Assembly: GCA_947307295.1 (NCBI GenBank)
Contig: CAMZIQ010000002.1
Span: 80,621 to 144,620 of the forward strand
DNA length: 64,000 nucleotides
Origin: an uncultured Pseudomonadota bacterium
Lineage (GTDB): Bacteria > Pseudomonadota > Alphaproteobacteria > Rs-D84
Reading direction: 5' to 3'
A program made the position numbers and the translations under genes. Within the stretch, counting starts at the first letter, position 1; each line of letters starts with the position of its first letter. Positions 5,283-23,480 of this stretch are shown in pieces. The notes under the pieces were generated by a model that saw nothing but the letters and a program-made list of their open reading frames with translations, did not search any database and was not told the origin of the DNA.

Positions 5283-5359
5283 TGGTGGGTGGTATTGGGC
5301 TCGAACCAACGACCTCCACGATGTCAACGTGACGCTCTAGCCAACTGAGCTAACCACCC
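5283..5359 (-). tRNA. tRNA-Val (anticodon GAC), CCA encoded
   Basis: Reverse complement folds as a cloverleaf: GGGTGGT acceptor, D-arm TAGCTCAGTTGGCTAGAGC, anticodon stem TCACG/CGTGG with loop TTGACAT, T-arm GGTCGTTGGTTCGAGCC, then ACCACCC-A-CCA. The 5' half is supplied by the left att repeat of the integrated element. Confidence 0.9.
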
Positions 5360-5364
5360 AAAGC
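5317..5364. repeat. att core copy 1 (attL; equals the 5' half of tRNA-Val(GAC) plus 5 bp)
   Basis: Exact 48-bp direct repeat. Forms part of the intact tRNA. Confidence 0.85.
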
Positions 5365-5370
5365 CACTGA

Positions 5371-5398
5371 ATTATAACATCTAAATTCTAGAATGCAA
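5371..5398 (-). promoter_or_regulatory. element-borne sigma70-like promoter for tRNA-Val (TTGCAT-16-TATAAT on the minus strand)
   Basis: Minus strand reads ttgcat-N16-tataat, ending 11 nt before tRNA +1. A homologous native promoter (TTGCAA-16-TATAAT) sits beside the orphan att copy at 23535..23562. Confidence 0.45.
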
Positions 5399-5511
5399 AT
5401 AAAATCGCTTTTTTTTGCTTTGGTGGCTTTTAGATATAATTTGCTATAGCATCCCCTTTTCACCTACAGTATACTCTAGAGCATGCTCCAAATATGCTCC
5501 TAAATGGTGTT

Positions 5512-5721
5512 TTAGTAGTGTTTATTGGCAAATTTATCTATTCTAATTCGTTTTCCCCATGAATTTACAACAATAACATCTTCACCACTATGAAAAACAT
5601 CACGAGGTTTGTGGAATTCGAGTCTTCGACCACCAATTTGTTTGACTATTACATCATCGTCTTTCCAACGGTATCTCAAATTGCTTTTTGTTTGCATGTT
5701 TAAACCTCTTACTATGATCAT
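5512..5721 (-). CDS. hypothetical small protein (69 aa) at the element left end
   Basis: ORF conserved in both element copies. No motif recognised. Confidence 0.35.
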   Translation of the reverse strand: MIIVRGLNMQTKSNLRYRWKDDDVIVKQIGGRRLEFHKPRDVFHSGEDVIVVNSWGKRIRIDKFANKHY

Positions 5722-5823
5722 TAGAACTAAATTTGGTGCAGATTTTTACCATAAAAGGAATAAAAACACACATTTTAGAGTATAAATATTGTGTAAACAC
5801 TGTTTTCGTGTTATAATTGCTAC

Positions 5824-6975
5824 ATGTTTTATGATGTACAACCGATTCAGAATAAAGAAGACTATAAAAGAATGTTGACTCTTGTAGGTCAGCTTTCGAA
5901 TCTTTTTTCTGAGAGCGATTGTCCTTATTTATCTTACAGGGCTCATGAAAATATATTTTGTAGATTTTTGGGAGCAGAGAATTTAGCCAGATCTGATTGT
6001 TCTGCTGATGCCAAGAAAGATAAAGTTGGTGTTGGTTTGAAAACGTGGATGGGTAACAATGATCAGAAGGTTGCAGAATTTGGGCGTTTGAAGAATAGTT
6101 ATGCTAGTCTTTCTGGAATTGAATTAGTAAAGAAAATAGCTGAATACAGGAATGAACGCATCAGAATTACAAAGAGGTTACATGGATTAGATTCTATGAT
6201 ATACCATGTTGTAAAACGTGTTCCCGGAGCTATGCAAATTCTTGAGGGTGTGTTTGACGAGATAAATATAGAAAACATCACATTATTATCAAACACTGGG
6301 AACGATAACAACACATACTTTACTGATGGAAAACACAAATATCATTTTAGCACATCAAAAAACACTCTGTATATGATATTTGATTTTCTTGAACAGTTGG
6401 ATTCTTTTGAGGTAAAAATATTAGAAAATCCTTATGAATGGTTGTCGAAAGCTACAGATAAAAAAACTATTTCCAAAGACATCAAGAAAGTTGTCAAAGC
6501 TATACAAGAGGAATCAGCAAGAAAACCCCAATTATGTTTGAGATTATATTCGGTAAAGAAGGGTGAAAGGTTTGTTGCTGAGAAGAGTGGTTTAAATCAG
6601 TGGAACGCATCAGGAAGAGCAAGGAATCCTAATGAGTTATATATACCATACCCTAAGGAAGACAGAGACAGAATTCCTAATTTCTTTCCACCAAGAGACA
6701 CACCTTTTACACTACATTTGCCAGATGGTACAGCTATTTCTGCTAAAGTGTGCCAAGCAGACAACAAGGCTATAATGAGTAATCCTAACAGTTTATTGGG
6801 CAAATGGCTTTTGCGAGATGTGTTTGAATTGCCAGATAATACTTTAGTAACATATCAAATGTTAGAAAGGTTTGGTATAGATAGTGTGATTTTCACTAGA
6901 AATGCAGAATTAGATTATTCCGTAGAATTTTCAGAATTGGGCACTTATGAACGTTTTTATGAGATTGAAGACTAA
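5824..6975 (+). CDS. candidate Type II restriction endonuclease (383 aa) directly upstream of the C5-MTase
   Basis: Context only: co-oriented and 45 bp upstream of a Dcm-type MTase on a mobile element. No unambiguous PD-(D/E)xK motif. TATAAT (5812-5817) ends 6 nt before the ATG, suggesting a leaderless transcript. Confidence 0.45.
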   Translation: MFYDVQPIQNKEDYKRMLTLVGQLSNLFSESDCPYLSYRAHENIFCRFLGAENLARSDCSADAKKDKVGVGLKTWMGNNDQKVAEFGRLKNSYASLSGIELVKKIAEYRNERIRITKRLHGLDSMIYHVVKRVPGAMQILEGVFDEINIENITLLSNTGNDNNTYFTDGKHKYHFSTSKNTLYMIFDFLEQLDSFEVKILENPYEWLSKATDKKTISKDIKKVVKAIQEESARKPQLCLRLYSVKKGERFVAEKSGLNQWNASGRARNPNELYIPYPKEDRDRIPNFFPPRDTPFTLHLPDGTAISAKVCQADNKAIMSNPNSLLGKWLLRDVFELPDNTLVTYQMLERFGIDSVIFTRNAELDYSVEFSELGTYERFYEIED

Positions 6976-7017
6976 AAGAGTTTTTGGTTTTTTTATTTTA
7001 TTTTTTTTTGTTTTATT

Positions 7018-7035
7018 TTATTGCGGCGTGCCGCA
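7018..7035. promoter_or_regulatory. perfect palindrome ATTGCGGCGTGCCGCAAT between the R and M genes (attenuator or operator candidate)
   Basis: 8-bp arms ttgcggcg/cgccgcaa, preceded by a long T-rich tract and followed by tttat. A TAAAAT -10-like box and RBS aggag for the MTase lie downstream. Confidence 0.35.
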
Positions 7036-8067
7036 ATTTATGATAGAGTAAAATATGGTTACAGACACAGGAGTTTAAATATGTATACAATAGCATCGTT
7101 TTTTGCCGGTGTTGGTGGCATAGACTTAGGTTTTGAACAAACTAATAAATGCAAAACAATCTATGCTAATGAGTTTGATAGTTATGCAAGTGAGACGTTT
7201 GAAAAAAATTTTCCCGATGTCAAAGTTGATCAACGAGATATACATGATGTGCCTGAAAAAGATATACCAAATGTTGATATTTTTATAGGCGGTTTTCCAT
7301 GTCAGGCATTTTCTATAGCCGGCTACAGACGTGGCTTTGAGGACGAGAAAGGTAGAGGAAATTTGTTTTTTGAGCTTGTTCGTATGATGAAGGCAAAAAA
7401 ACCTCGTGTTGCGTTGTTTGAAAATGTAAAAAATTTAGTTAGCCACGACAAAGGGAATACGTTTCGTGTGATTTGTAATGAGTTGGAAAAATTGGGTTAT
7501 TATTATACATATCATGTTTTGAATGCCATGGATTATGGGAATATGGCTCAAAACAGGGAACGTATATATATAGTAGCATTCAAAAATAAGAAAGATTTTA
7601 TAAAATTCAAATGGGCGAAGACGGTACCTCTAACAACAACAGTAAAAGATATTATAGATTTTACTAAGAAGGTAGACGATAGATTTTATTATACAAAGGG
7701 AAAATACAAGGGTGATATATATGAAAGGCTTGTTGAAGCTACAAAAGGTGACGATCCTAAAAATCCGGCAATATACCAATGGCGTAGAAAATATGTTAGA
7801 AAAAACAAAAGTGGAGTGGTGCCAACTCTAACAGCTAATCAAGGTGAAGGTGGTCATAATGTTTGTATTGTAAAAACAAAATATGGTTTGAGAAAAATGA
7901 CCCCTCAAGAATGCTTTAATACCCAAGGCTTTCCAAAAACGTTTTTGTTACCAAAGCAAAGCGATGCACGTTTATATAAGCAGGCTGGCAATTCTGTTTG
8001 TGTACCGGTTATACACAATATAGCAGAAAACATAGTAACAGCTTTGTCTGACGGCGAAGATAGCTAG
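7021..8067 (+). CDS. DNA (cytosine-5)-methyltransferase, Dcm/HhaI-like; true start probably ATG at 7081 (MYTIASFF) after RBS aggag
   Basis: Motif I FAGVGG, motif IV GGFPCQAFS, motif VI ENVKNL, motif VIII QNRERIYIVAF, motif X GNSV. Short TRD (~328 aa total) as in M.HhaI and M.HaeIII. Confidence 0.9.
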   Translation: MRRAAIYDRVKYGYRHRSLNMYTIASFFAGVGGIDLGFEQTNKCKTIYANEFDSYASETFEKNFPDVKVDQRDIHDVPEKDIPNVDIFIGGFPCQAFSIAGYRRGFEDEKGRGNLFFELVRMMKAKKPRVALFENVKNLVSHDKGNTFRVICNELEKLGYYYTYHVLNAMDYGNMAQNRERIYIVAFKNKKDFIKFKWAKTVPLTTTVKDIIDFTKKVDDRFYYTKGKYKGDIYERLVEATKGDDPKNPAIYQWRRKYVRKNKSGVVPTLTANQGEGGHNVCIVKTKYGLRKMTPQECFNTQGFPKTFLLPKQSDARLYKQAGNSVCVPVIHNIAENIVTALSDGEDS

Positions 8068-8224
8068 AGCTCTTAGTGCGTAGCTGAGATTGTGTAATTA
8101 TTGCAGGCACAACAAAAACTTGAAAAATGTAAGTAACGTGGTATATTTAATGTGAGTACTCGTAAGTGTGCTTGTGACATTAGATAGCGGAACGGGTTTG
8201 ATCACCCAAGTACTAGTCTAGATA

Positions 8225-8346
8225 GTGTCCCAACCGAATGGTTGGGATGCCTTGTGCTATACAATAGGTCTTACCGACTAAAAGCCTTGGGGTTCTGTAC
8301 TTGAATTGATCAACATCCCAACCGCCTAATAAAGCGGTTGTTTTTT
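8225..8346 (+). repeat. divergent copy (C) of a CCAACC-N-GGTTGG leader-like repeat ending in hairpin aaccgc-ctaataaa-gcggtt plus T-run, immediately 5' of the Nuc-like gene
   Basis: Same architecture as repeats A (23624..23816) and B (40478..40660): an internal palindrome cccaaccgaatggttggg, about 85 nt, then ccaaccgcc-loop-gcgg plus Ts. Confidence 0.5.
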
Positions 8347-8871
8347 ATGTTGAAAGCTACTGGATGTTTTTTGTTTTTGATTCTTATATTTGAATTGGTT
8401 GCATGTAATCAAAATGCTATACAACCAATTCAAGAAAACCATAATGATATAAAGATATTTTTTACTCCCGGCACAGAATGTGAAAATAATATTATTGAAA
8501 GAATAAACCAATCAAAAAAAGTGGACATAGCTGTTTATTCAATTACAAACCCTGCTATTACAAAGGCTATTATTTCTGCATATAAACATGGGGTAAATGT
8601 AAGAATTGTGACAGATAAAACACAAGCATCAGGAAAAAAATCATTAGTCTCTCAAATACGTGCTGCCGGAATACCTGTTTTGACTAATAAAAAACACAAG
8701 ATAGAACATAATAAGTTTGCTGTTTTTGACGATGTACATGTTGTTTCTGGATCTTATAACTGGACAACAAACGCAACCAACTATAACAGTGAAAATTGCC
8801 TATTCTTTGATCAACCAGACATGGAATATTCTAAAAGATTTGAGTATCTATGGAAGGTTTATAGTGAATAG
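8338..8871 (+). CDS. Nuc-like phospholipase-D-family (HKD) endonuclease with lipoprotein signal peptide; start likely ATG at 8347
   Basis: HNKFAVFDD HxK(x4)D motif followed by SGSYNWT (PLD/Nuc family). N-terminus MLKATGCFLFLILIFELVAC has the lipobox LVAC. Size ~175 aa, as for pKM101 Nuc. Confidence 0.8.
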   Translation: MFFMLKATGCFLFLILIFELVACNQNAIQPIQENHNDIKIFFTPGTECENNIIERINQSKKVDIAVYSITNPAITKAIISAYKHGVNVRIVTDKTQASGKKSLVSQIRAAGIPVLTNKKHKIEHNKFAVFDDVHVVSGSYNWTTNATNYNSENCLFFDQPDMEYSKRFEYLWKVYSE

Positions 8872-8872
8872 C

Positions 8873-10558
8873 CTAGTAGTATATTTTAAATCCATCGTCT
8901 GTACCCAACTCTTCTATCACATTTTGTATTCTTTTTATTGTTATTTGATCTACTGTTTGAAATCCTGCTTTGCCTTCTATGGATTTTGGATCAACTTTTT
9001 CTGGTATCTGAGAGACGATAAAGTTGAAATTTGTACCTTCTTGTTTGTTTTTTAGCAAGCAGGCATGACTAACTACAGATGCTCCACCATACATCTCAAA
9101 TATCACCCCGGATCGTTGCCCAATAAGATCCAAAAGCATAGTTATAAGTTTTACCGGTTTTTTTGATCCACTAAATGATATATGACCTTCATTTTGTAGT
9201 GTTGATTTAGTGTCTGAAACATCCCATATATCACCTAAAATAACAGAATTTTTCAAGGATCCATCTTCTTGTTTTATAAGGCTATCGCTAAAACGCAAAT
9301 ATAAGGCGTTTTTAGAGCCTTTTTCTAGTAACTTGCCCTTGTACTCGAATATAGGGTCTAAATCGTCTCTATGGGCATAAAAAACGCTTTTATAAGCATT
9401 TGATTTGGGGTAAACAGCTTTGTATAGGTCTTTTGCTATAGTATTGTACATATAATGTTTGAATTCTGGCTCTATTTTGATCATTTTTTCTATGTTTTTA
9501 GATAATAGTTCCATGTTGTGCTTTTTGAATAAGTTTATTATATGAGGTTGCTGTTTCAGGTGGTCAATCAAATATATTTTTTCGTGCACTCCAAAAGTCG
9601 AATTTGGTTTTTTGATAAGATGCTTAAAGGAGTTTTGCCAGTAAGTACTAGATGGAGTGTATAAACGTTGCAGGTGATTTACTTTTGATTTGTCTTTTGC
9701 ATATACTAATAAATAGGATTTTAGTCCGGGTAATCTGTATTGAGTCCTAGATACAATAATAGATGCAGGGGTGCTTGTTTTTATGACGATGTTGTTTATA
9801 AAGTTTTCTCTACCGTATACAGAATCCATAAGCACTTTTACATACGCCATTTCGTGCTCACTTACAGATAGAGCAACAAGTCCGTCTGGTTGAAGAAGTT
9901 TTTTTACTAATTCAAGGCGAGGAAAAAGGTGCTCTAAAAGCTGGCACGTTCCGTCAAATGAAGAATTATATGCTAATACAGCTCTGTTTGATGGCATGTT
10001 AAAGGGTATGTCCCCGTATGCAAGTAACAGTTTTCCTGAGTATTCTGGTAAGAGCCATTTACAAGCATCTATATTATCTTTCACTAGAACAAGATTTTTA
10101 GATTTTTCATTATTTGGTAAGGAGTTGAAAGATTTGTTTGGGTGAAATTTGACTTTTGTTGGAGTGTTTGTTAGTTTTTCTGCCCTTTCTCTTCCATTAA
10201 AGTATAGAAATAGTCCGTTTTTGTTTTGTGTTTGTGTGGTGTTGTTTTTAAAGTCTTCTAGCGATCCAATTATTCCTTCGTATCTATACAGTTGCCCCCA
10301 TTTTTTACCATTTTCAACTTTGCTTATAATTCCGGTGTTGCAGAGAAGTTTGAGTGTGTTGGTGATGGTTGGTCTTGGGATTTTTGTTTGTTTGCATAAA
10401 GTTGTGATGTCGAGTTGAGGGGTTTTGCAAAAAGTATCAAATATGGCTAATGCTGTGTTTTTTGATCTACCAATGTTTTCTATTTTTGCTCGATCTGTAG
10501 ATATAATTTCTGTATTGAATGTATTTATTGTTTTTCTGATGGTTTGTTTTTTTATCAT
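8873..10558 (-). CDS. winged-HTH fused to a divergent N6/N4 amino-methyltransferase-like domain (PF01555-like fold with degenerate catalytic and SAM motifs)
   Basis: N-terminal wHTH-like segment AIFDTFCKTPQLDITTLCKQTKIPRPTITNTLKLLCNTGIISK. Motif IV position reads LLLAYGDIPFNMP (DIPF rather than DPPY). Typical post-motif segments: LQPDGLVALSVSEH..., NNIVIKT, YLLVYAKDKSK. C-terminal motif I position reads GVIFEMYGGASVV rather than VLDPFxGSGTT. Confidence 0.65.
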   Translation of the reverse strand: MIKKQTIRKTINTFNTEIISTDRAKIENIGRSKNTALAIFDTFCKTPQLDITTLCKQTKIPRPTITNTLKLLCNTGIISKVENGKKWGQLYRYEGIIGSLEDFKNNTTQTQNKNGLFLYFNGRERAEKLTNTPTKVKFHPNKSFNSLPNNEKSKNLVLVKDNIDACKWLLPEYSGKLLLAYGDIPFNMPSNRAVLAYNSSFDGTCQLLEHLFPRLELVKKLLQPDGLVALSVSEHEMAYVKVLMDSVYGRENFINNIVIKTSTPASIIVSRTQYRLPGLKSYLLVYAKDKSKVNHLQRLYTPSSTYWQNSFKHLIKKPNSTFGVHEKIYLIDHLKQQPHIINLFKKHNMELLSKNIEKMIKIEPEFKHYMYNTIAKDLYKAVYPKSNAYKSVFYAHRDDLDPIFEYKGKLLEKGSKNALYLRFSDSLIKQEDGSLKNSVILGDIWDVSDTKSTLQNEGHISFSGSKKPVKLITMLLDLIGQRSGVIFEMYGGASVVSHACLLKNKQEGTNFNFIVSQIPEKVDPKSIEGKAGFQTVDQITIKRIQNVIEELGTDDGFKIYY

Positions 10559-10577
10559 GGTACGCTCTCTCTTGAAT

Positions 10578-10604
10578 CATTATTTTTTATAGCAGAAAAT
10601 AATG
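10578..10604. promoter_or_regulatory. 9-bp-stem inverted repeat cattatttt-N9-aaaataatg 20 bp upstream of the MTase-like gene
   Basis: Perfect inverted repeat seen directly. Lies in the divergent intergenic region between the MTase-like gene (-) and the AlpA-like gene (+). Confidence 0.3.
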
Positions 10605-10692
10605 AATAATGCCAATCTAAAAAAAATAACAAAGTATACATTTTTATCATAATTTTGAGTTCTAATATACATACAAAAAAGGATCTATACTA

Positions 10693-10875
10693 ATGCTAAC
10701 AAAACCAGAATTCACACAAGAAAAACTATTGACGGTTACAGAGGCAGCTAATATTTTGAATTTAAAACCTTCTACCTTATACCGTATCAAACAAAATGAA
10801 AGGTCTCCCAAAAAGGTCAAAGTTTGTGGCAGGCTTTATTTTACTCTTTCTTCTATAAACAACATAATGGGCTAA
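10693..10875 (+). CDS. AlpA-like HTH DNA-binding protein (prophage regulatory / excisionase family)
   Basis: LLTVTEAANILNLKPSTLYR helix-turn-helix and the GRLYF / SINNI C-terminal pattern of the AlpA family. RBS aagga 8 nt upstream. Convergently overlaps the 3' end of the Rep gene by ~100 bp. Confidence 0.65.
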   Translation: MLTKPEFTQEKLLTVTEAANILNLKPSTLYRIKQNERSPKKVKVCGRLYFTLSSINNIMG

Positions 10876-11709
10876 TCTCTTTTCTAATATCTTTCTCAAT
10901 TTGTTTATGGGGTTTGGTAAGAGTAATTCGCCACGTTGTTTGAGCCATAAAGCAAAGATAATGACGGTTTTCAGTTGCTTTATATCAAAATAATTCACTT
11001 TATGTGGGTTGAATCTCTCTTTGCCAAACCAAGTCTTCATTGTAAACAGCTCACTACCTTCGTTGATATGTGGATCTTCGTTGTCTTTTAATTCTTTGAC
11101 AAGGTAAGCACAAATTCCCTCTTTATCATAAACACATCTCAAATCAAAAACGGTCTTATAAAACTTATATTTATCAACGATTTTACTAATTGCATCACAT
11201 AATCTGTAGCCAATATATTCGTCATGATCTGTACTTTTGAAGAGAATATGAACATGCCACCAAAAATCATTCTTACCATGTTCCATTACACCAACACATT
11301 GTAAAGCGTTTCTAGTCCAATGATTTTTTTGTTCTATGGCAAGAGTTTGAATTTCTTTGAATAATTTTTTATAAGATTTTTTAGCGTCTTCTCTGTTTCT
11401 TGTTCTTCTAAAACCGGATTGGGTGCATCTGGGTAGTTTGATTGTCAAAAGATAAGAATAGTCTTCTTGCATTAGTTGTTTTTGCCAATATTTCCTAGAG
11501 TCTTGATATTCAGTTTGGTGATTCCTATAAAAACCATTCAATTCTTCATTTATCTCATTTGTAAATTTAGACATGATTTCCTCTAGCGTTCTAAACCTTC
11601 TTCTTATTTTCAATCCACGTTCTTCCACATAAAACGTTCTTCTTTTTATTGTTTTACTTAGTTGGGAATGTTGAACATCTAAATTAGAAAATAAATCATA
11701 ACCATTCAT
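10777..11709 (-). CDS. HUH-superfamily rolling-circle Rep / MobT-like relaxase candidate (310 aa)
   Basis: WWHVHILF (HUH motif) followed by Tyr-containing segments (DEYIGYRL, ICAYLVKELK), as in Rep_trans/MobT proteins. Divergent from the regulator gene across a promoter/operator region. Confidence 0.55.
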   Translation of the reverse strand: MNGYDLFSNLDVQHSQLSKTIKRRTFYVEERGLKIRRRFRTLEEIMSKFTNEINEELNGFYRNHQTEYQDSRKYWQKQLMQEDYSYLLTIKLPRCTQSGFRRTRNREDAKKSYKKLFKEIQTLAIEQKNHWTRNALQCVGVMEHGKNDFWWHVHILFKSTDHDEYIGYRLCDAISKIVDKYKFYKTVFDLRCVYDKEGICAYLVKELKDNEDPHINEGSELFTMKTWFGKERFNPHKVNYFDIKQLKTVIIFALWLKQRGELLLPNPINKLRKILEKRLAHYVVYRRKSKIKPATNFDLFGRPFILFDTV

Positions 11710-11971
11710 TTATTACCTTCTTGGTTTACTTTGTTTAATGAATGATCAACACACCTTTTGTTTTGGGTGCTAATCAGTTTGAATCAAAAAGCCCGGATTT
11801 ATAAGGGTTGAAGCGTAATCCAATCCAACAGGAGCGATTTGATTTATTTCCTAGAACTGTTTTTTTTCATAAAGTTGTAAAATTTTTCATTCTTTGTGAT
11901 TTTTTTGAGGAACGATTCGTAAAAAAAGACAAATTCGATACAAAAATAGGTGTTTTTTCTGGCAGGAGGCA

Positions 11972-12029
11972 AGTGTATACACTTTGTGTATAAAAAATAC
12001 TTGACATCGGTACACAAAAAGTGTATACT
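11972..12029 (+). promoter_or_regulatory. switch region: consensus sigma70 promoter (TTGACA 12001-12006, 17 bp spacer, TATACT 12024-12029) with GTGTAYAC operator repeats, including the 12-bp palindrome AGTGTATACACT at 11972-11983
   Basis: Sequence read directly. Operator-like motifs at 11972-83, 11986-93, 12008-15 (inverted) and 12019-29 overlap the -35 and -10 boxes. RBS aaagaggtg then ATG of the HTH regulator. Confidence 0.6.
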
Positions 12030-12058
12030 GTAGCTGTAACAAAAACAAAAGAGGTGTT

Positions 12059-12601
12059 TTGATGGAAAAATATAGAACAAAGTTTGGTACATGGATCTCT
12101 GTATTTTGTGCCAGACATGGATTAAACATCGCAAGGGCTGCTTATGAATTGGGGTTGGCTCCTACTACATTGGCATCTATTGTAGCTGGAAGACATCCTT
12201 TACCGGTGTTCTTGCGTGAAAATATCATAGCGACTTTCGGAAGATATTTGTCCGGAACAGATATTGCCGAAATGGATCAAAGCATTGTTGATACAGAGGC
12301 AGGAGCTGTGATTGTGTCAAGGAACTATAAAAAATACGTCAGTGCACAAACAGTGAATGACAAAGAATGGTGTCTAAAACTGATGGATGTAATGGCTAAA
12401 GCGACCAATAAAATGAACAAGGAGGAATCTGAAGAAATTTATGCTCGTTTGCAAGAGATTGCTGAACGCCCTGCACCAGTATCTATAGAATTAGACAAAG
12501 ATATAGATATTGAAACGCTGAGACAAGATATTCGCAGACGGTATAAAGACCCTGTAAAAACAGAACAAATTGTAGAAAAAATAAAAGAACTGAGACAATA
12601 A
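12059..12601 (+). CDS. XRE/Cro-like HTH transcriptional regulator (element repressor candidate), acidic coiled-coil C-terminus
   Basis: N-terminal HTH WISVFCARHGLNIARAAYELGLAPTTLASIVAGRH. Immediately downstream of the operator-rich promoter. Confidence 0.6.
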   Translation: MMEKYRTKFGTWISVFCARHGLNIARAAYELGLAPTTLASIVAGRHPLPVFLRENIIATFGRYLSGTDIAEMDQSIVDTEAGAVIVSRNYKKYVSAQTVNDKEWCLKLMDVMAKATNKMNKEESEEIYARLQEIAERPAPVSIELDKDIDIETLRQDIRRRYKDPVKTEQIVEKIKELRQ

Positions 12602-12715
12602 AAAATAAAGTGGGTGAACAAGCTGCAACCTGCTCACCCTAACAAACACCAAACGAGTTGGATGTCTGCCACAAAGTCATTTTAGCTCGTTTGGATCAAA
12701 AATCAAGAACCAAAG

Positions 12716-14029
12716 GTGACTAAAATGAGCAAACAAGAAAATATTACACAAACATTAGTAAATAAAATCGTATACAACATCGAAAAAGGCAACACGTCTG
12801 AATTATGTGATGTGTGGGATTCTAAGACATCAGGTTTTGGTATACGAGTTGGCAAAACCAATGCATCTTTTATTTTCAAATATAGAAATAAGGCAAACAA
12901 AGCCCAAACAAAAACATTTGGTAAAATAACCGAAATGTCTGTTGCTGAGGCTAGAAATCTATTGGACGCATTTAAACCAACAATAAAATCTGATCTTGCA
13001 ACAATTCAGAAAACTAATAAGAAATATACGGTGAAAGATTTATGTGAAAAATATCTTGCGGAACACCAAACTCGTGCAACAACGAAAAAACAAGACGAAA
13101 GCAGGATTGAAAGACACGTCTTGCCAACACTTGGCAACATACCATTACATTTATTGACAGCTAAAGATATTATGAATGCACAAACGGCTATTGCAAACGG
13201 TGATAAAAAAATAATTATAGCAGGACATAAAAACCCAAATAATCCACATTCATATATCAAAGTATCTGGCGGTCAAGGTGCTGCTAAAAGGGTTATGGAA
13301 ATGCTGAAAACAATTTTGAATTTTGCAGAAGACGAAGAGTTGATTGAAAAAAATCCTATGAATTCTCGTAAATTCAAAAAAATCAAATACGATAAAAAAG
13401 AAACAGCGTATCTCGAAAACAACAATTATGAAAATCTTGGTTATTTGTTGAAAAAGCATGAACAGCAATCAAAGAAAAGCAATCAAAGTGTGTTGTTTAT
13501 AAAATTATTGGCTTTGACGGGCTGTCGTAAAGGTGAATTATTAGGTCTTACTTGGAATCGAGTAGATTTTACCAACCAATATTTTGTGTTTGCTAAAACA
13601 AAAACTACAGGGGAACAAAAACGATATTTTGGATCTGCAGCAAAAAGATTATTGTTAGATATGCACCAAAAAGCTACATCCAACTACTTGTTCCCTAGTA
13701 TTACAAAAACAGGTACACATAGAAAAGATTGTTTGAGAGCTTTAAAGCAGATTTGTAAAACAGCACAAGAAAACAAAAGTCAATTTGATGCAATACAAAA
13801 ACTAACCCTACATGGTCTTAGACATTCATTTTCAACAATGTGTAACACCCTCTCTTTTCCCGATGTAATTAGAGAAGGACTTATGGGGCACAAGAATGGT
13901 GGTGTACAATATATTTATACACACAATACACATAACACAATGATTGAACATGCAGATAAAGTATCAGAAAGTATCAACACGTTGTTAGATACGGGATGTA
14001 AAAAAGCAGAATTGGAAAACAACAACTAA
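12716..14029 (+). CDS. int: tyrosine recombinase / phage integrase (P4-like, DUF4102 N-terminus); start possibly ATG 12725
   Basis: Box I LTGCRKGELLGLTWNRVD (Arg), box II HGLRHSF (H-x-x-R), and catalytic Tyr in HKNGGVQYIYTH. Adjacent to the tRNA att site. Confidence 0.92.
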   Translation: MTKMSKQENITQTLVNKIVYNIEKGNTSELCDVWDSKTSGFGIRVGKTNASFIFKYRNKANKAQTKTFGKITEMSVAEARNLLDAFKPTIKSDLATIQKTNKKYTVKDLCEKYLAEHQTRATTKKQDESRIERHVLPTLGNIPLHLLTAKDIMNAQTAIANGDKKIIIAGHKNPNNPHSYIKVSGGQGAAKRVMEMLKTILNFAEDEELIEKNPMNSRKFKKIKYDKKETAYLENNNYENLGYLLKKHEQQSKKSNQSVLFIKLLALTGCRKGELLGLTWNRVDFTNQYFVFAKTKTTGEQKRYFGSAAKRLLLDMHQKATSNYLFPSITKTGTHRKDCLRALKQICKTAQENKSQFDAIQKLTLHGLRHSFSTMCNTLSFPDVIREGLMGHKNGGVQYIYTHNTHNTMIEHADKVSESINTLLDTGCKKAELENNN

Positions 14030-14041
14030 AGAGGTAAAAAA

Positions 14042-14263
14042 ATGAAATTTATAACAGAAAGAGAATTAGCTAAATTTTTATCGAATGAATATGGTTTGCC
14101 AACATCGAAAAAATCATTAGAAAAATTACGTGCAAAAGGTAAAGCACCAAATTTTAGAGTTTGGGGTGGAAAAATTGTATATGAAAAGCAAGATGTACAG
14201 ACATGGCTCAACAATCAAATGGCGATTTGTTACAAGTACACAATGCCAAAATATAGCATATAA
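14042..14263 (+). CDS. excisionase-like HTH protein (HTH_17/AlpA-Xis family)
   Basis: ITERELAKFL ... NFRVWGGKIVYEKQDVQTWL pattern. Immediately follows the integrase, with RBS gaggtaaaaaaATG. Confidence 0.55.
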   Translation: MKFITERELAKFLSNEYGLPTSKKSLEKLRAKGKAPNFRVWGGKIVYEKQDVQTWLNNQMAICYKYTMPKYSI

Positions 14264-14273
14264 AAAAAGCAAA

Positions 14274-14291
14274 ATGCTCCCAATATGCTCC
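14274..14291 (+). promoter_or_regulatory. pair of ATGCTCC direct repeats 11 bp apart at the element right end (putative integrase/Xis arm-type sites); equivalent pair at the left end, 5483-5500
   Basis: atgctcc at 14274-80 and 14285-91. atgctcc at 5483-89 and 5494-5500. Same orientation and spacing (one helical turn) at both arms. Confidence 0.35.
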
Positions 14292-14340
14292 AAAATGATA
14301 AAAACCACAAAACTAACACAAACACTAGAGAATCAAAAAA

Positions 14341-14367
14341 CCCCGGAAATCCGGGGTAAATCTTTTT
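14341..14367 (+). terminator. Rho-independent terminator after xis (ccccgg-aaat-ccgggg then T-run)
   Basis: Hairpin and tctttttgtt read directly. Last feature before att. Confidence 0.5.
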
Positions 14368-14398
14368 GTTGGGGGGCTAAAATCTTCATAACGAATTT

Positions 14399-14446
14399 CA
14401 CGATGTCAACGTGACGCTCTAGCCAACTGAGCTAACCACCCAAAGC
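14399..14446. repeat. att core copy 2 (junction between the two element units; partial tRNA-Val 5' half)
   Basis: Exact 48-bp direct repeat. Preceded by the element right end and followed by the element left end. Confidence 0.85.
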
Positions 14447-14593
14447 CACTGAATTATAACATCTAAATTCTAGAATGCAAATAAAATCGCTTTTTTTTGC
14501 TTTGGTGGCTTTTAGATATAATTTGCTATAGCATCCCCTTTTCACCTACAGTATACTCTAGAGCATGCTCCAAATATGCTCCTAAATGGTGTT

Positions 14594-14803
14594 TTAGTAG
14601 TGTTTATTGGCAAATTTATCTATTCTAATTCGTTTTCCCCATGAATTTACAACAATAACATCTTCACCACTATGAAAAACATCACGAGGTTTGTGGAATT
14701 CGAGTCTTCGACCACCAATTTGTTTGACTATTACATCATCGTCTTTCCAACGGTATCTCAAATTGCTTTTTGTTTGCATGTTTAAACCTCTTACTATGAT
14801 CAT
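14594..14803 (-). CDS. hypothetical small protein (copy 2 of 5512..5721)
   Basis: Identical translation at offset +9082. Confidence 0.35.
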   Translation of the reverse strand: MIIVRGLNMQTKSNLRYRWKDDDVIVKQIGGRRLEFHKPRDVFHSGEDVIVVNSWGKRIRIDKFANKHY

Positions 14804-14905
14804 TAGAACTAAATTTGGTGCAGATTTTTACCATAAAAGGAATAAAAACACACATTTTAGAGTATAAATATTGTGTAAACACTGTTTTCGTGTTATAATT
14901 GCTAC

Positions 14906-16057
14906 ATGTTTTATGATGTACAACCGATTCAGAATAAAGAAGACTATAAAAGAATGTTGACTCTTGTAGGTCAGCTTTCGAATCTTTTTTCTGAGAGCGA
15001 TTGTCCTTATTTATCTTACAGGGCTCATGAAAATATATTTTGTAGATTTTTGGGAGCAGAGAATTTAGCCAGATCTGATTGTTCTGCTGATGCCAAGAAA
15101 GATAAAGTTGGTGTTGGTTTGAAAACGTGGATGGGTAACAATGATCAGAAGGTTGCAGAATTTGGGCGTTTGAAGAATAGTTATGCTAGTCTTTCTGGAA
15201 TTGAATTAGTAAAGAAAATAGCTGAATACAGGAATGAACGCATCAGAATTACAAAGAGGTTACATGGATTAGATTCTATGATATACCATGTTGTAAAACG
15301 TGTTCCCGGAGCTATGCAAATTCTTGAGGGTGTGTTTGACGAGATAAATATAGAAAACATCACATTATTATCAAACACTGGGAACGATAACAACACATAC
15401 TTTACTGATGGAAAACACAAATATCATTTTAGCACATCAAAAAACACTCTGTATATGATATTTGATTTTCTTGAACAGTTGGATTCTTTTGAGGTAAAAA
15501 TATTAGAAAATCCTTATGAATGGTTGTCGAAAGCTACAGATAAAAAAACTATTTCCAAAGACATCAAGAAAGTTGTCAAAGCTATACAAGAGGAATCAGC
15601 AAGAAAACCCCAATTATGTTTGAGATTATATTCGGTAAAGAAGGGTGAAAGGTTTGTTGCTGAGAAGAGTGGTTTAAATCAGTGGAACGCATCAGGAAGA
15701 GCAAGGAATCCTAATGAGTTATATATACCATACCCTAAGGAAGACAGAGACAGAATTCCTAATTTCTTTCCACCAAGAGACACACCTTTTACACTACATT
15801 TGCCAGATGGTACAGCTATTTCTGCTAAAGTGTGCCAAGCAGACAACAAGGCTATAATGAGTAATCCTAACAGTTTATTGGGCAAATGGCTTTTGCGAGA
15901 TGTGTTTGAATTGCCAGATAATACTTTAGTAACATATCAAATGTTAGAAAGGTTTGGTATAGATAGTGTGATTTTCACTAGAAATGCAGAATTAGATTAT
16001 TCCGTAGAATTTTCAGAATTGGGCACTTATGAACGTTTTTATGAGATTGAAGACTAA
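14906..16057 (+). CDS. candidate Type II restriction endonuclease (copy 2)
   Basis: Identical translation at offset +9082. Confidence 0.45.
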   Translation: MFYDVQPIQNKEDYKRMLTLVGQLSNLFSESDCPYLSYRAHENIFCRFLGAENLARSDCSADAKKDKVGVGLKTWMGNNDQKVAEFGRLKNSYASLSGIELVKKIAEYRNERIRITKRLHGLDSMIYHVVKRVPGAMQILEGVFDEINIENITLLSNTGNDNNTYFTDGKHKYHFSTSKNTLYMIFDFLEQLDSFEVKILENPYEWLSKATDKKTISKDIKKVVKAIQEESARKPQLCLRLYSVKKGERFVAEKSGLNQWNASGRARNPNELYIPYPKEDRDRIPNFFPPRDTPFTLHLPDGTAISAKVCQADNKAIMSNPNSLLGKWLLRDVFELPDNTLVTYQMLERFGIDSVIFTRNAELDYSVEFSELGTYERFYEIED

Positions 16058-16102
16058 AAGAGTTTTTGGTTTTTTTATTTTATTTTTTTTTGTTTTATTT
16101 TA

Positions 16103-17149
16103 TTGCGGCGTGCCGCAATTTATGATAGAGTAAAATATGGTTACAGACACAGGAGTTTAAATATGTATACAATAGCATCGTTTTTTGCCGGTGTTGGTGG
16201 CATAGACTTAGGTTTTGAACAAACTAATAAATGCAAAACAATCTATGCTAATGAGTTTGATAGTTATGCAAGTGAGACGTTTGAAAAAAATTTTCCCGAT
16301 GTCAAAGTTGATCAACGAGATATACATGATGTGCCTGAAAAAGATATACCAAATGTTGATATTTTTATAGGCGGTTTTCCATGTCAGGCATTTTCTATAG
16401 CCGGCTACAGACGTGGCTTTGAGGACGAGAAAGGTAGAGGAAATTTGTTTTTTGAGCTTGTTCGTATGATGAAGGCAAAAAAACCTCGTGTTGCGTTGTT
16501 TGAAAATGTAAAAAATTTAGTTAGCCACGACAAAGGGAATACGTTTCGTGTGATTTGTAATGAGTTGGAAAAATTGGGTTATTATTATACATATCATGTT
16601 TTGAATGCCATGGATTATGGGAATATGGCTCAAAACAGGGAACGTATATATATAGTAGCATTCAAAAATAAGAAAGATTTTATAAAATTCAAATGGGCGA
16701 AGACGGTACCTCTAACAACAACAGTAAAAGATATTATAGATTTTACTAAGAAGGTAGACGATAGATTTTATTATACAAAGGGAAAATACAAGGGTGATAT
16801 ATATGAAAGGCTTGTTGAAGCTACAAAAGGTGACGATCCTAAAAATCCGGCAATATACCAATGGCGTAGAAAATATGTTAGAAAAAACAAAAGTGGAGTG
16901 GTGCCAACTCTAACAGCTAATCAAGGTGAAGGTGGTCATAATGTTTGTATTGTAAAAACAAAATATGGTTTGAGAAAAATGACCCCTCAAGAATGCTTTA
17001 ATACCCAAGGCTTTCCAAAAACGTTTTTGTTACCAAAGCAAAGCGATGCACGTTTATATAAGCAGGCTGGCAATTCTGTTTGTGTACCGGTTATACACAA
17101 TATAGCAGAAAACATAGTAACAGCTTTGTCTGACGGCGAAGATAGCTAG
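16103..17149 (+). CDS. DNA (cytosine-5)-methyltransferase (copy 2; start probably 16163)
   Basis: Identical translation at offset +9082, with the same m5C motifs. Confidence 0.9.
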   Translation: MRRAAIYDRVKYGYRHRSLNMYTIASFFAGVGGIDLGFEQTNKCKTIYANEFDSYASETFEKNFPDVKVDQRDIHDVPEKDIPNVDIFIGGFPCQAFSIAGYRRGFEDEKGRGNLFFELVRMMKAKKPRVALFENVKNLVSHDKGNTFRVICNELEKLGYYYTYHVLNAMDYGNMAQNRERIYIVAFKNKKDFIKFKWAKTVPLTTTVKDIIDFTKKVDDRFYYTKGKYKGDIYERLVEATKGDDPKNPAIYQWRRKYVRKNKSGVVPTLTANQGEGGHNVCIVKTKYGLRKMTPQECFNTQGFPKTFLLPKQSDARLYKQAGNSVCVPVIHNIAENIVTALSDGEDS

Positions 17150-17306
17150 AGCTCTTAGTGCGTAGCTGAGATTGTGTAATTATTGCAGGCACAACAAAAA
17201 CTTGAAAAATGTAAGTAACGTGGTATATTTAATGTGAGTACTCGTAAGTGTGCTTGTGACATTAGATAGCGGAACGGGTTTGATCACCCAAGTACTAGTC
17301 TAGATA

Positions 17307-17428
17307 GTGTCCCAACCGAATGGTTGGGATGCCTTGTGCTATACAATAGGTCTTACCGACTAAAAGCCTTGGGGTTCTGTACTTGAATTGATCAACATCC
17401 CAACCGCCTAATAAAGCGGTTGTTTTTT
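17307..17428 (+). repeat. leader-like repeat C (copy 2) ending in a terminator hairpin at the Nuc-like start
   Basis: Identical to 8225..8346 at +9082. Confidence 0.5.
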
Positions 17429-17953
17429 ATGTTGAAAGCTACTGGATGTTTTTTGTTTTTGATTCTTATATTTGAATTGGTTGCATGTAATCAAAATGCT
17501 ATACAACCAATTCAAGAAAACCATAATGATATAAAGATATTTTTTACTCCCGGCACAGAATGTGAAAATAATATTATTGAAAGAATAAACCAATCAAAAA
17601 AAGTGGACATAGCTGTTTATTCAATTACAAACCCTGCTATTACAAAGGCTATTATTTCTGCATATAAACATGGGGTAAATGTAAGAATTGTGACAGATAA
17701 AACACAAGCATCAGGAAAAAAATCATTAGTCTCTCAAATACGTGCTGCCGGAATACCTGTTTTGACTAATAAAAAACACAAGATAGAACATAATAAGTTT
17801 GCTGTTTTTGACGATGTACATGTTGTTTCTGGATCTTATAACTGGACAACAAACGCAACCAACTATAACAGTGAAAATTGCCTATTCTTTGATCAACCAG
17901 ACATGGAATATTCTAAAAGATTTGAGTATCTATGGAAGGTTTATAGTGAATAG
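17420..17953 (+). CDS. Nuc-like PLD-family endonuclease lipoprotein (copy 2)
   Basis: Identical translation at offset +9082. Confidence 0.8.
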   Translation: MFFMLKATGCFLFLILIFELVACNQNAIQPIQENHNDIKIFFTPGTECENNIIERINQSKKVDIAVYSITNPAITKAIISAYKHGVNVRIVTDKTQASGKKSLVSQIRAAGIPVLTNKKHKIEHNKFAVFDDVHVVSGSYNWTTNATNYNSENCLFFDQPDMEYSKRFEYLWKVYSE

Positions 17954-17954
17954 C

Positions 17955-19640: not shown

Positions 19641-19774
19641 GGTACGCTCTCTCTTGAATCATTATTTTTTATAGCAGAAAATAATGAATAATGCCAATCT
19701 AAAAAAAATAACAAAGTATACATTTTTATCATAATTTTGAGTTCTAATATACATACAAAAAAGGATCTATACTA

Positions 19775-19957
19775 ATGCTAACAAAACCAGAATTCACACA
19801 AGAAAAACTATTGACGGTTACAGAGGCAGCTAATATTTTGAATTTAAAACCTTCTACCTTATACCGTATCAAACAAAATGAAAGGTCTCCCAAAAAGGTC
19901 AAAGTTTGTGGCAGGCTTTATTTTACTCTTTCTTCTATAAACAACATAATGGGCTAA
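19775..19957 (+). CDS. AlpA-like HTH protein (copy 2)
   Basis: Identical translation at offset +9082. Confidence 0.65.
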   Translation: MLTKPEFTQEKLLTVTEAANILNLKPSTLYRIKQNERSPKKVKVCGRLYFTLSSINNIMG

Positions 19958-21111: not shown

Positions 21112-21140
21112 GTAGCTGTAACAAAAACAAAAGAGGTGTT

Positions 21141-23111: not shown

Positions 23112-23123
23112 AGAGGTAAAAAA

Positions 23124-23449: not shown

Positions 23450-23480
23450 GTTGGGGGGCTAAAATCTTCATAACGAATTT

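Follow-up and report, generated by a model that had tools for sequence, protein, structure and literature searches.

A structured leader RNA before the gene of a probably lipid-anchored Nuc-family nuclease on a tandemly duplicated integrative island of an Rs-D84 alphaproteobacterium

RESULTS

A duplicated integrative island carries the nuclease gene

The window, by which we mean the whole 64,000-nucleotide stretch of DNA analyzed here, contains an integrative island inserted at a tRNA-Val gene. Self-comparison of the window found the island twice in perfect tandem, with an offset of 9,082 bp and zero mismatches, and the nuclease gene therefore has a second, identical copy. The features of this region are as follows.

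5283..5359, minus strand: tRNA-Val(GAC), the integration target (ARAGORN; Rfam tRNA, 63.9 bits)
5317..14398, no strand: integrative island, unit 1, 9,082 bp, with an att copy at 5317-5364 (self-comparison offset, 9082)
5824..6975, plus strand: Type II restriction endonuclease with an NgoFVII_C B3-like DNA-binding domain (Pfam RE_NgoFVII_C, E 4.3e-13; PADLOC REase_II, E 3.9e-89)
7021..8067, plus strand: C5 cytosine DNA methyltransferase (Pfam, E 8e-86; TIGR00675)
8347..8871, plus strand: PLD/Nuc-like nuclease gene, copy 1, 174 amino acids plus stop (ORF and translation, PLDc_2 and 1BYR matches, homologue alignment)
8873..10558, minus strand: 561-aa N6/N4 DNA methyltransferase, Type III Mod-like (Pfam N6_N4_Mtase; PADLOC MTase_III, E 8e-43)
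10777..11709, minus strand: 310-aa protein, candidate partner nuclease of the 561-aa methyltransferase (homologue in L001, L002, and L006)
12716..14029, plus strand: tyrosine integrase with Arm-DNA-bind_3, SAM-like, and catalytic domains (Pfam)
14399..23528, no strand: unit 2 of the integrative island together with the terminal att copy (att copies, 14399-14446 and 23481-23528)
17429..17953, plus strand: second copy of the PLD/Nuc-like nuclease gene, identical to the first through the tandem duplication (100% tblastn match, 9,082-bp offset)

Two R-M-like modules flank the PLD gene, and the gene for the 561-aa methyltransferase is convergent with it. The 310-aa protein had no match in Pfam, NCBIfam, PADLOC, or PHROG; at the corresponding position in L085-87, an unannotated 283-aa ORF lies beside a 556-aa N6_N4 methyltransferase. 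The NgoFVII_C-type restriction enzyme was considered as an HKD partner forming a heterodimer with the nuclease and was rejected, as it has no HxK motif anywhere, a PLD similarity of only E 3.4, and no PDB sequence match.

The three copies of the 48-bp att repeat consist of nucleotides 1 to 43 of the tRNA-Val plus 5 nucleotides; the use of the 5' half of a tRNA is atypical. A near-identical island occurs in single copy at the same tRNA in another species (L001), with 98% identity compared to 68 to 78% in the flanks. An integrase, tRNA-derived direct repeats, and recurrence of the element elsewhere mark it as a tRNA-targeting tyrosine-integrase island. A first-pass annotation, made from the sequence alone, had described the gene as riding on an integrase element with an R-M system, and this carriage was established here by recovery of the integrase, the att repeats, the tRNA, and the R-M genes. 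The tandem duplication had gone unnoticed in that annotation. Between the window and L001, the nuclease gene has 28 nonsynonymous and 11 synonymous codon differences, concentrated in its 5' part. Diversifying selection on the leader and 5' PLD region was considered, but the elevated divergence there is more simply, if tentatively, explained as a recombination junction beside swapped left-hand cargo.

The open frame of copy 1 spans 8338 to 8871 on the plus strand, and the first-pass annotation began the gene at TTG 8338. This codon is rejected as a start: it lies within the stem and T-run of the upstream hairpin/terminator, and all homologues begin at the Met (MxK...) corresponding to ATG 8347, which is thus the true start. 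The same annotation held that the gene lacks an SD and begins directly after a terminator hairpin, and both points stand: none of GGAG, GAGG, or AGGA was found upstream of the ATG, and the hairpin (8319-8340) and its T6 tract (8341-8346) abut ATG 8347. Only 12 of 36 genes have a strong SD core, so the absence of one is not unusual here. An exact-protein lookup with the nuclease sequence returned no record.

The gene product is a single-HKD protein of the Nuc family with a conserved export signal

Two segments of the coding sequence define the protein.

8347..8406, plus strand: signal peptide (amino acids 1-19) and lipobox L17-V18-A19-C20 (invariant Cys20, lipobox counts in homologues)
8707..8760, plus strand: HKD catalytic motif, H121 to N138 (HxK(x)4D(x)6GSxN, the same in all 42 aligned homologues; lines up with the motif of Nuc)

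The single HKD motif of the chain reads H121-N-K123-FAVF-D128-DVHVVS-G135-S136-Y-N138, the canonical HxK(x)4D(x)6GSxN, and H121, K123, D128, G135, S136, and N138 are invariant in the 42 aligned homologues. Pfam PLDc_2 matched over its full length (profile positions 1-132 of 132) with 88.8 bits against a cut-off of 27 and an E value of 3.5e-25, which excludes a chance match and agrees with the original assignment to the single-HKD PLD family. The best PDB relative by sequence was Nuc of pKM101 (1BYR, E 4.9e-17), which was also the top Foldseek match of an AF2 model with a mean pLDDT of 82 (E 7e-13, TMt 0.79, rmsd 2.4 Å, 30% identity). Zucchini and NucT were the next solved relatives. Neither structure search returned BfiI, so the "Nuc/BfiI clade" first named for this protein is more accurately called the "Nuc/Zucchini/NucT clade." The protein is not a NucT orthologue, since the NCBIfam NucT equivalog models (PRK13912) scored 29 to 49 bits against cut-offs of 211 to 351 (best, 48.9 versus 297). 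Motif, fold, and family membership are established by these matches.

In the N terminus (MLKATGCFLFLILIFELVAC), Lys3 is followed by a hydrophobic core and then by LVAC, the Cys of which (Cys20) is invariant across the family. A loose lipobox rule ([LVI][ASTVI][GAS]C with the Cys at position 15 to 35 and K or R among the first seven residues) was satisfied by 106 of 120 homologues, and by the window protein through L17-V18-A19-C20 and Lys3. The strict PROSITE PS51257-type lipoprotein pattern, which excludes charged residues from -4 to -10, accepted 89 of the 120. The window copy fails it solely through Glu16 (GAA) at -4, while P0001, which is 98% identical, has Val16 and passes. The lipoprotein signal ending in LVAC that had been noted at the outset is therefore a conserved property of the family, with the qualification that the window copy itself breaks the strict rule. 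The residue at +2 is N, S, V, or G in the family. More distant relatives bear Ala-x-Ala signal peptides, which makes export a family trait. Residues 1-27 have low pLDDT in the AF2 model, consistent with a flexible tether, and the invariant pair Cys45 and Cys151 in the alignment fits an oxidizing compartment, where the two may form a disulfide. On its sequence, the nuclease is most likely lipid modified at Cys20 and membrane tethered. The product is very probably an exported, probably lipid-anchored Nuc-family nuclease.

Homologues are almost confined to uncultured gut and rumen Alphaproteobacteria (Rs-D84 and Ca. Enterousia MAGs), a lineage with genomes of <1 Mbp that lack nucleotide biosynthesis (PMC12306168). 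Related genes lie on islands with MmeI-like and N6_N4 methyltransferase systems, beside serine recombinases, and next to a phosphorothioation-like cluster and a prophage; the 111 ORFs neighboring them include 9 DNA methyltransferases and 5 resolvases. Relatives also occur in one PHROG and on nine IMG/VR contigs. Nuc-like genes were found on at least 5,000 plasmid records, at least 4,091 of them conjugative, as expected from the initial remark that Nuc homologues travel with conjugative plasmids. No competence genes adjoin the nuclease gene in the 15 loci surveyed.

A covarying leader RNA with its own promoter-like site precedes the gene

The sequence between the methyltransferase and nuclease genes has these features, the leader being repeated in island unit 2.

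8120..8147, plus strand: promoter-like site of the leader, TTGAAA-16-TATATT with TG (consensus scan)
8153..8346, plus strand: structured leader RNA, copy 1, about 190 nucleotides (CM match, 144.8 bits)
17235..17428, plus strand: structured leader RNA, copy 2, tandem duplicate (CM search)

In each of the 14 related loci compared, a -10 box is situated 194 to 208 nucleotides before the ATG. The leader opens with a 5' hairpin, followed by a hairpin formed by GGG (8194-8196) and CCC (8205-8207) whose loop (8198-8204) pairs with 8307-8313 as a pseudoknot. Helix P2 (8229-8235/8240-8246) comes next, and the leader closes with a terminator (8319-8325/8334-8340 plus T6 at 8341-8346) ending 0 nucleotides before the ATG. 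An alternative helix of 8 bp, 8240-8247 with 8316-8323, can be paired in 18 of 18 leader sequences. In a covariation test, 96.7% of cells were paired compared to 31 to 43% in slid controls, and 18 of the 41 base pairs had double-sided changes; the predicted structure and its alternative pairing are thus shown by covariation. The minimum free energy was -60.3 kcal/mol (z = -3.26). A covarying structure whose terminator and alternative helix exclude each other is the arrangement of a terminator-based attenuator or riboswitch-like element.

Searches against 4,227 Rfam families gave no match at the gathering threshold for the leader or for its paralogue at 40.5 kb (described below), and a GcvB match to the leader (21.4 bits versus a threshold of 42) was taken as noise. 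A metagenome scan with the pattern CCCGACN{2,9}GGTCGGGATG yielded, among the matches listed, chance matches only, mostly to unrelated environmental contigs, and none of those listed had the leader's downstream box and terminator. The hairpin before the gene had been attributed to a repeat family. It does belong to a recurring element, but that element is a family of structured leader RNAs, in which the hairpin forms the 3' end, and not a simple repeat; a dispersed REP/MITE-like repeat was rejected because the copies are always oriented upstream of genes, have their own promoter, and carry compensatory changes.

Paralogous leaders precede genes for envelope and secreted proteins

Two further members of the leader family lie in the window, outside the island.

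23625..23820, plus strand: paralogous leader before an OMP-beta-barrel-like gene (23843-24493, plus strand) (weak CM match; sequence close to the 40.5-kb copy)
40472..40658, minus strand: paralogous leader before the gene of a secreted 268-aa protein (ORF 39642-40447, minus strand) (CM 26.8 bits, E about 3e-6 to 6e-5)

The pseudoknot of the leader at 23625..23820 is TCGAAAC/GTTTCGA, and the L026 homologue of the OMP-beta-barrel-like gene is also preceded by a leader match. A signal peptide and a Flg_new repeat were identified in the 268-aa protein. The products of genes that follow a leader of this family include an OMP-like protein, a PMP-repeat adhesin, and further secreted proteins, and this shared leader would place the nuclease in an envelope-protein regulon.

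DISCUSSION

Relation to known nucleases and regulatory RNAs

The protein itself is ordinary, another member of the Nuc family, and the leader RNA is the interesting part. With Nuc of the IncN plasmid pKM101/R46 (1BYR/1BYS) the window protein shares a single HKD motif, a mature domain of about 150 amino acids, the alpha/beta PLD fold, and a signal for export at the N terminus, and both are encoded on mobile elements. Nuc is soluble and periplasmic with an ordinary signal peptide, whereas the window protein has a lipobox and a linker of about 15 residues; Nuc has Ala/Ala in place of the invariant Cys45/Cys151; and the window gene lies on an integrative island instead of a plasmid, behind a structured leader and with no SD. 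NucT of H. pylori (HP0323, 6EHI) is likewise an exported, membrane-associated, cation-independent PLD nuclease (PMC5714352) and matched the fold with a probability of 1.0, but it is only about 25% identical and is chromosomal with an extra basic loop. Zucchini/MitoPLD (PLD6; 4GGJ, 4GEL) is a membrane-tethered, single-HKD dimeric nuclease of the same fold; it differs in belonging to the outer membrane of eukaryotic mitochondria, in having an N-terminal TM anchor and a zinc-finger insertion, and in acting in piRNA biogenesis, and it is about 24% identical. DISARM DrmC and Dpd DpdK are also small PLD-domain proteins near DNA-modification genes. They are cytoplasmic, unlike the window protein with its export signal, which scored 25.8 bits against a cut-off of 133 for DrmC and 19.4 against 100 for DpdK, and the island has no drmA/B/D/E or dpd genes. 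Membership in a DISARM-, Dpd-, or Mokosh-type defense system was rejected on this weak, generic PLD similarity and the lack of partner genes.

The leader resembles intrinsic-terminator attenuators and riboswitch expression platforms in its promoter, pseudoknotted domain, terminator with U-tract, and mutually exclusive helix. It departs from them in that the U-tract touches the start codon of the PLD gene with no SD, the family precedes envelope-protein genes and not metabolic genes, and no Rfam family matched. These leaders may represent an undescribed class of pseudoknotted cis-regulatory RNA, either a riboswitch or a protein- or RNA-responsive attenuator, governing an envelope and secreted-protein regulon in Rs-D84, a host-type leader that mobile islands would have captured to bring their nuclease cargo under the same control. 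Its proposed regulon would comprise OMP-like proteins, PMP-repeat adhesins, small lipoproteins, and Nuc-like nucleases in the reduced-genome gut Alphaproteobacteria of the order Rs-D84. We judge this reading, regulon included, to fall just short of an even chance.

Proposed mechanism and role

We propose that the preprotein is exported via Sec and lipid modified at Cys20, and that the flexible linker would tether it to the periplasmic or outer face of a membrane. By analogy with Nuc, NucT, and Zucchini, it would form a homodimer, the HKD motifs of the two chains together making up a single active site, and, as in Nuc and NucT, it would cleave DNA and RNA at their phosphodiester bonds with no need for metal ions, by way of a phospho-histidine intermediate at His121. 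We infer this dimerization, chemistry, substrate range, and topology from the relatives. The leader, with its own promoter, would gate expression: its default fold would be a pseudoknotted multi-helix domain followed by the intrinsic terminator, and the 8240-8247/8316-8323 helix would break both P2 and the terminator and so allow read-through. The lack of an SD before the ATG counts against this account, in which translation would have to start after read-through without one.

In the role that we favor, the tethered enzyme would degrade nucleic acids outside the cell or in the periplasm and so supply nucleotide salvage in a host lineage unable to make nucleotides, with the gene as beneficial cargo of R-M-bearing islands. 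Nuc and NucT are dimeric, cation-independent nucleases with periplasmic signal peptides, and H. pylori, a host dependent on purine salvage, is described in that account as using NucT to salvage purines from extracellular DNA (PMC5714352). Between DNA defense on one side and uptake or nutrition on the other, a host without nucleotide synthesis (PMC12306168) tilts the balance towards nutrition. As a whole, the explanation that a tethered, leader-gated Nuc-like nuclease serves nutritional scavenging is about evenly poised between right and wrong, and the nutritional role judged by itself is tentative, possible rather than probable. For a nutritional gene that an auxotroph cannot do without, one would expect a place in the core genome and not on islands. 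A DNA barrier would account at least as naturally for the consistent association with DNA methyltransferases, restriction genes, and recombinases and for the many Nuc genes on conjugative plasmids. For plasmid-borne Nuc itself, no clear biological function has to our knowledge been assigned since the 1970s.

Such a barrier would act at the envelope, where the tethered nuclease would destroy phage, conjugative, or transforming DNA on its arrival in the periplasm; the barrier would protect both island and host, complement the cytoplasmic R-M systems, and serve as superinfection-exclusion cargo. The position of the gene between two R-M-like modules speaks for it, as do the settings of related genes near MmeI-like/N6_N4 methyltransferase systems, serine recombinases, a phosphorothioation-like cluster, and a prophage, the 9 methyltransferases and 5 resolvases in 111 neighboring ORFs, the at least 4,091 conjugative plasmids, and the relatives in a PHROG and on nine IMG/VR contigs. 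We nevertheless consider it rather unlikely, though it is the chief rival. Experimental precedent for Nuc as an entry barrier was not found, the NucT literature favors salvage and transformation (PMC5714352), the PADLOC similarity is weak and generically PLD (DrmC, E 3.5e-10) without partner genes, the leader is common to ordinary host surface-protein genes and not defense genes, and the host lineage is a nucleotide auxotroph (PMC12306168). A helper in DNA uptake, processing incoming double-stranded DNA for natural transformation as first proposed for NucT, is quite improbable. Its homologue NucT (6EHI) is implicated in competence, but the effect of NucT on transformation is modest (PMC5714352), competence genes are absent beside the gene in 15 loci, and the NucT equivalog score is far too low (48.9 versus 297).

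Still less probable is activity on lipids, in which the enzyme would hydrolyze or transphosphatidylate membrane phospholipids, as once proposed for MitoPLD, and not attack nucleic acids. The PDB matches ranking second carry the annotation "mitochondrial cardiolipin hydrolase," JGI names two homologues PS/PGP/cardiolipin-synthase-like, and a cardiolipin synthase matched weakly (E 4e-4); against this, the closest relatives of demonstrated activity (Nuc, NucT, and Zucchini) are nucleases, the protein is small, single-HKD, and Nuc-sized, and lipid PLDs and cardiolipin synthases rank far lower in the searches. The least probable reading is that the change from Val to Glu at position 16 blocks export or lipidation and the tandem copies are decaying cargo. 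Glu16 does break the strict pattern that 98%-identical P0001 satisfies with Val, and the 28 nonsynonymous against 11 synonymous differences from L001 are concentrated 5', yet the ORF is intact with all catalytic and Cys residues kept, Glu16 comes after 12 uncharged, hydrophobic residues (residues 4-19 average 2.4 on the Kyte-Doolittle scale), and the leader is intact.

The tethered, leader-gated nuclease that we favor extends the Nuc/NucT family to a probably lipid-anchored clade of several hundred unnamed proteins in uncultured, nucleotide-auxotrophic gut and rumen Alphaproteobacteria. The clade is a concrete candidate for nucleotide acquisition by genomes of <1 Mbp or for mobile elements policing incoming DNA. 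If the signal sensed by the leader were a nucleotide or nucleoside, nuclease export would be coupled directly to nucleotide starvation. The leader family offers a starting point for the search for new riboswitches or attenuators and for mapping an envelope regulon of an unculturable lineage.

Identity of the nuclease

The open reading frame at 8338 to 8871 (+) reported in the first-pass annotation is present, but its TTG at 8338 lies inside the upstream hairpin and T-run, and all close homologues in the alignment start at the Met of the ATG at 8347 (M-x-K...). TTG 8338 was therefore ruled out as the start codon, and the gene was assigned to 8347 to 8871, encoding 174 aa. The HKD motif claimed in that annotation was confirmed; H121-N-K-F-A-V-F-D128-D-V-H-V-V-S-G135-S-Y-N138 is the canonical HxK(x)4D(x)6GSxN and is invariant in a 42-sequence alignment. 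The Pfam PLDc_2 search proposed there as a check gave a full-length match (88.8 bits versus a cut-off of 27, E = 3.5e-25).

In a PDB sequence search, Nuc of pKM101 ranked first (1BYR, E = 4.9e-17), ahead of Zucchini/MitoPLD and then H. pylori NucT. An AlphaFold2 model made from the family alignment (mean pLDDT of 82, residues 1 to 27 disordered) also matched 1BYR first when compared with the PDB by Foldseek (E = 7e-13, TM score of 0.79 on the target, rmsd of 2.4 Å, 30% identity), with Zucchini and NucT after it. BfiI appeared in neither search, so a Nuc/Zucchini/NucT clade describes the protein more accurately than the suggested Nuc/BfiI clade. The protein scored far under the cut-offs of the NCBIfam NucT equivalogs, DISARM DrmC, and DpdK. 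It is placed as a Nuc-like family member orthologous to no named protein.

Export signal and conserved cysteines

Lys3 and a hydrophobic core precede L-V-A-C20 in the N terminus (MLKATGCFLFLILIFELVAC-NQ). In the 42-sequence alignment Cys20 never varies; among 120 retrieved homologues, 106 have a lipobox ahead of the conserved FFTPG strand and 89 pass a strict PROSITE-like lipoprotein rule. The residue following the lipobox Cys is N, S, V, or G, and Asp only once. The window protein fails the strict rule solely through Glu16 at lipobox position -4 (GAA, 8392 to 8394; 17474 to 17476 in the second gene copy), where P0001, a 98%-identical metagenomic homologue, has Val. This single-base change may affect signal-peptide processing. 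The lipoprotein signal described in the first pass, ending in LVAC, is thus well supported for the family and imperfect in this copy.

In more distant relatives (under ∼55% identity), the signal peptide is of the ordinary Ala-x-Ala type or is followed by an additional N-terminal domain. The prediction is therefore export for the entire group and lipid anchoring for the nuclease's own clade. Several relatives of 340 to 370 aa (loci L012, L013, L019 to L023, L026, L031, and L033) consist of a signal peptide and an unannotated ∼200-aa N-terminal domain fused to the PLD domain. Cys45 (8479 to 8481) and Cys151 (8797 to 8799) are invariant in the family; the aligned residue in Nuc is Ala in each case. 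This suggests a likely family-specific disulfide, which would fit an oxidizing extracytoplasmic compartment. We conclude with high confidence that the protein is an exported Nuc-like HKD enzyme; what is new is an uncharacterized lipoprotein clade within the known Nuc-like nucleases.

A structured leader RNA

Upstream DNA of related loci is alignable for ∼190 nt, a stretch that runs from a -35/-10 promoter, itself conserved, to a terminator, and the -10 box lies 194 to 208 nt 5' of the ATG in the 14 loci examined. The T-run touching the ATG is conserved, and over-extended homologue ORFs read "...KVVFFM." The earlier observation that the gene lacks a Shine-Dalgarno sequence and starts directly after a terminator-like hairpin holds.

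The RNAalifold prediction was a fold of multiple helices in which 10 pairs covary. Covariation was assessed on a hand-refined structure of eight helices, including a pseudoknot, in 18 sequences. In this structure, 96.7% of cells were paired, versus 31 to 43% with partners slid, double-sided changes occurred in 18 of 41 pairs, and none of 500 shuffles reached the observed score. The pseudoknot helix was 100% paired, and four of its five pairs covary. An 8-bp alternative helix (8240 to 8247 with 8316 to 8323) can form in all 18 sequences and is mutually exclusive with both the P2 hairpin (8229 to 8235/8240 to 8246) and the terminator; the four interacting positions have all changed in concert in the lineage of the window and L001, a yak-omasum MAG. 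Termination looks like the default state because the minimum-energy fold of the window leader (-60.3 kcal/mol, z = -3.26) includes P2 and the terminator.

A covariance model found the PLD-type leader solely before PLD genes (140 to 183 bits), together with weaker but significant paralogues ahead of other genes. Copies in the window are as follows.

Leader copies in the window
8153-8346: leader copy 1, preceding the nuclease gene at 8347
17235-17428: leader copy 2, tandem duplicate
23625-23820, plus: paralogue preceding an OMP-beta-barrel-like protein
40472-40658, minus: paralogue preceding a secreted Flg_new-repeat protein

Outside the window, paralogues precede a Chlamydia-PMP-repeat protein, small lipoproteins, secreted Cys-rich and transmembrane proteins, and distant PLDs. 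In Rs-D84 gut Alphaproteobacteria (the window and loci among L001 to L087), the family lies upstream of secreted, outer-membrane, surface-protein, and PLD nuclease genes. Across paralogues, the pairing of the hairpin loop with downstream sequence is preserved and is built from at least eight different sequences. In the non-PLD paralogues that were read over their full length, the two in the window among them, the terminator is followed by a ∼20-nt spacer with a G-rich Shine-Dalgarno-like stretch; the PLD-type leader has no such spacer 3' of its terminator. No Rfam family matches any leader copy, and we found no published description. The "repeat family" of the first-pass annotation is therefore real, not as a plain repeat but as a structured cis-regulatory RNA family. 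The leader would be the part of interest to specialists.

A tandem integrative island

Self-comparison of the window showed that 5317 to 14446 is identical to 14399 to 23528, with zero mismatches, so the window contains two head-to-tail copies of a 9,082-bp unit.

Features of the island
5283-5359, minus: tRNA-Val(GAC), source of the att repeat
5317-5364, 14399-14446, and 23481-23528: identical 48-bp att repeats bounding and separating the two units
5399-5371, minus: promoter-like site facing the reconstituted tRNA, TTTGCA-17-TATAAT with TG
17429-17953: nuclease gene copy 2, in the second unit
Each unit: Type II restriction enzyme with an NgoFVII_C DNA-binding domain (PADLOC REase_II, E = 4e-89)
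Each unit: C5 methyltransferase
Each unit: leader and nuclease gene
Each unit: 561-aa HTH-N6/N4 methyltransferase, Type III Mod-like by PADLOC, convergent with the nuclease gene
Each unit: 310-aa protein without a family match
Each unit: 180-aa protein
Each unit: tyrosine integrase

This content bears out the reported carriage of the nuclease with restriction-modification genes on an integrase element. No HxK motif is present in the NgoFVII_C-type restriction enzyme. The att repeat comprises nt 1 to 43 of the tRNA plus five upstream bases, that is, the tRNA 5' half, and the integrase lies at the island end far from the tRNA. Islands that target tRNA genes usually have att at the 3' end, and the 5'-half orientation is atypical. 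The perfect tandem may reflect genuine integration or amplification in tandem, or may be an artefact of assembly caused by an excised circular form. It and the 5'-half use are apparent oddities.

The stop codons of the nuclease gene (TAG, 8869 to 8871) and the 561-aa methyltransferase gene (CTA, 8873 to 8875) are 1 nt apart with no terminator between the genes, and their transcripts probably overlap. The methyltransferase is paired (8873 to 11709 for the two together) with the ∼310-aa protein, which had no match in Pfam, NCBIfam, PADLOC, or PHROG and is possibly its undescribed restriction partner. Methyltransferase homologues occur in L001, L010, and L017 and homologues of the 310-aa protein in L001, L002, and L006; in L085 to L087, a similar 556-aa methyltransferase adjoins an unannotated 283-aa ORF.

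L001 carries the same island as a single copy at the same tRNA. The right 6.3 kb of the island is 98% identical to that in the window, versus just 68 to 78% for the chromosomal flanks, and the left cargo comprises three ORFs of 462, 292, and 357 aa instead of the restriction enzyme and C5 methyltransferase. These comparisons mark the island as mobile and modular. The two islands are ∼99.5% identical across most of 5.7 kb, and 72 of their 116 differences fall within 8100 to 8700 (L001 6227 to 6820), adjoining the cargo-swap boundary. This segment takes in the leader plus the first two-thirds of the nuclease gene, with 28 non-synonymous and 11 synonymous codon changes.

Distribution and proposed role

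Relatives in a protein search numbered 594; they are almost all metagenomic, unnamed, and ∼175 aa in length. With one genome per species, 80 loci were recovered, and nearly all belong to uncultured Alphaproteobacteria of the gut or rumen, Ca. Enterousia and CAG:495-type MAGs among them. Contexts include a large serine recombinase element and an island that combines a resolvase and an MmeI-like system with a 556-aa HTH-N6_N4 methyltransferase, an unannotated 283-aa ORF, and an Arm-DNA-bind_3 integrase. In a further context (L082 to L084, ∼6700 to 8525), the gene lies with a phosphorothioation-like cluster on one side and the tail module of a P2-like prophage on the other. There, P0026 (65% identical) begins 5 nt after the cysteine-desulfurase gene of the cluster (Aminotran_5, DUF4007, PAPS_reduct, and SNF2+PLDc helicase), and the covariance model found no leader. 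Within 5 kb at 15 loci (111 ORFs), DNA methyltransferases (9) and resolvases (5) were commonest, amid housekeeping genes. Among viral sequences, relatives occur on nine contigs in IMG/VR and in six phage records in GenBank, and one PHROG of unknown function also contains relatives. That Nuc homologues travel on conjugative plasmids, as the first pass stated, holds at <40% identity, with at least 4,091 conjugative among at least 5,000 plasmid records.

By analogy with Nuc and NucT (PMC5714352), the enzyme would cleave nucleic acids as a metal-independent homodimer, with a phospho-histidine as the intermediate. It would be tethered to the membrane by its lipid anchor and a linker, and its expression would be gated by the terminator/antiterminator leader. 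An impaired copy, to which Glu16 in the signal peptide points, a DNA-uptake helper, and a lipid-directed PLD are minor alternatives. The main rival role is an envelope barrier to incoming DNA, for which the persistent company of restriction-modification, recombinase, and mobile-element genes argues. Genomes of the host order Rs-D84 and of the genus Enterousia are reported to be <1 Mbp and to lack nucleotide, amino-acid, and lipid biosynthesis (PMC12306168; L006 is a contig from a MAG of that study). Given the NucT precedent, and because membership in a proposed envelope-protein regulon fits, we favor as the physiological role the scavenging of nucleic acids to supply salvage in a host that is auxotrophic, which would be compatible with a barrier function.
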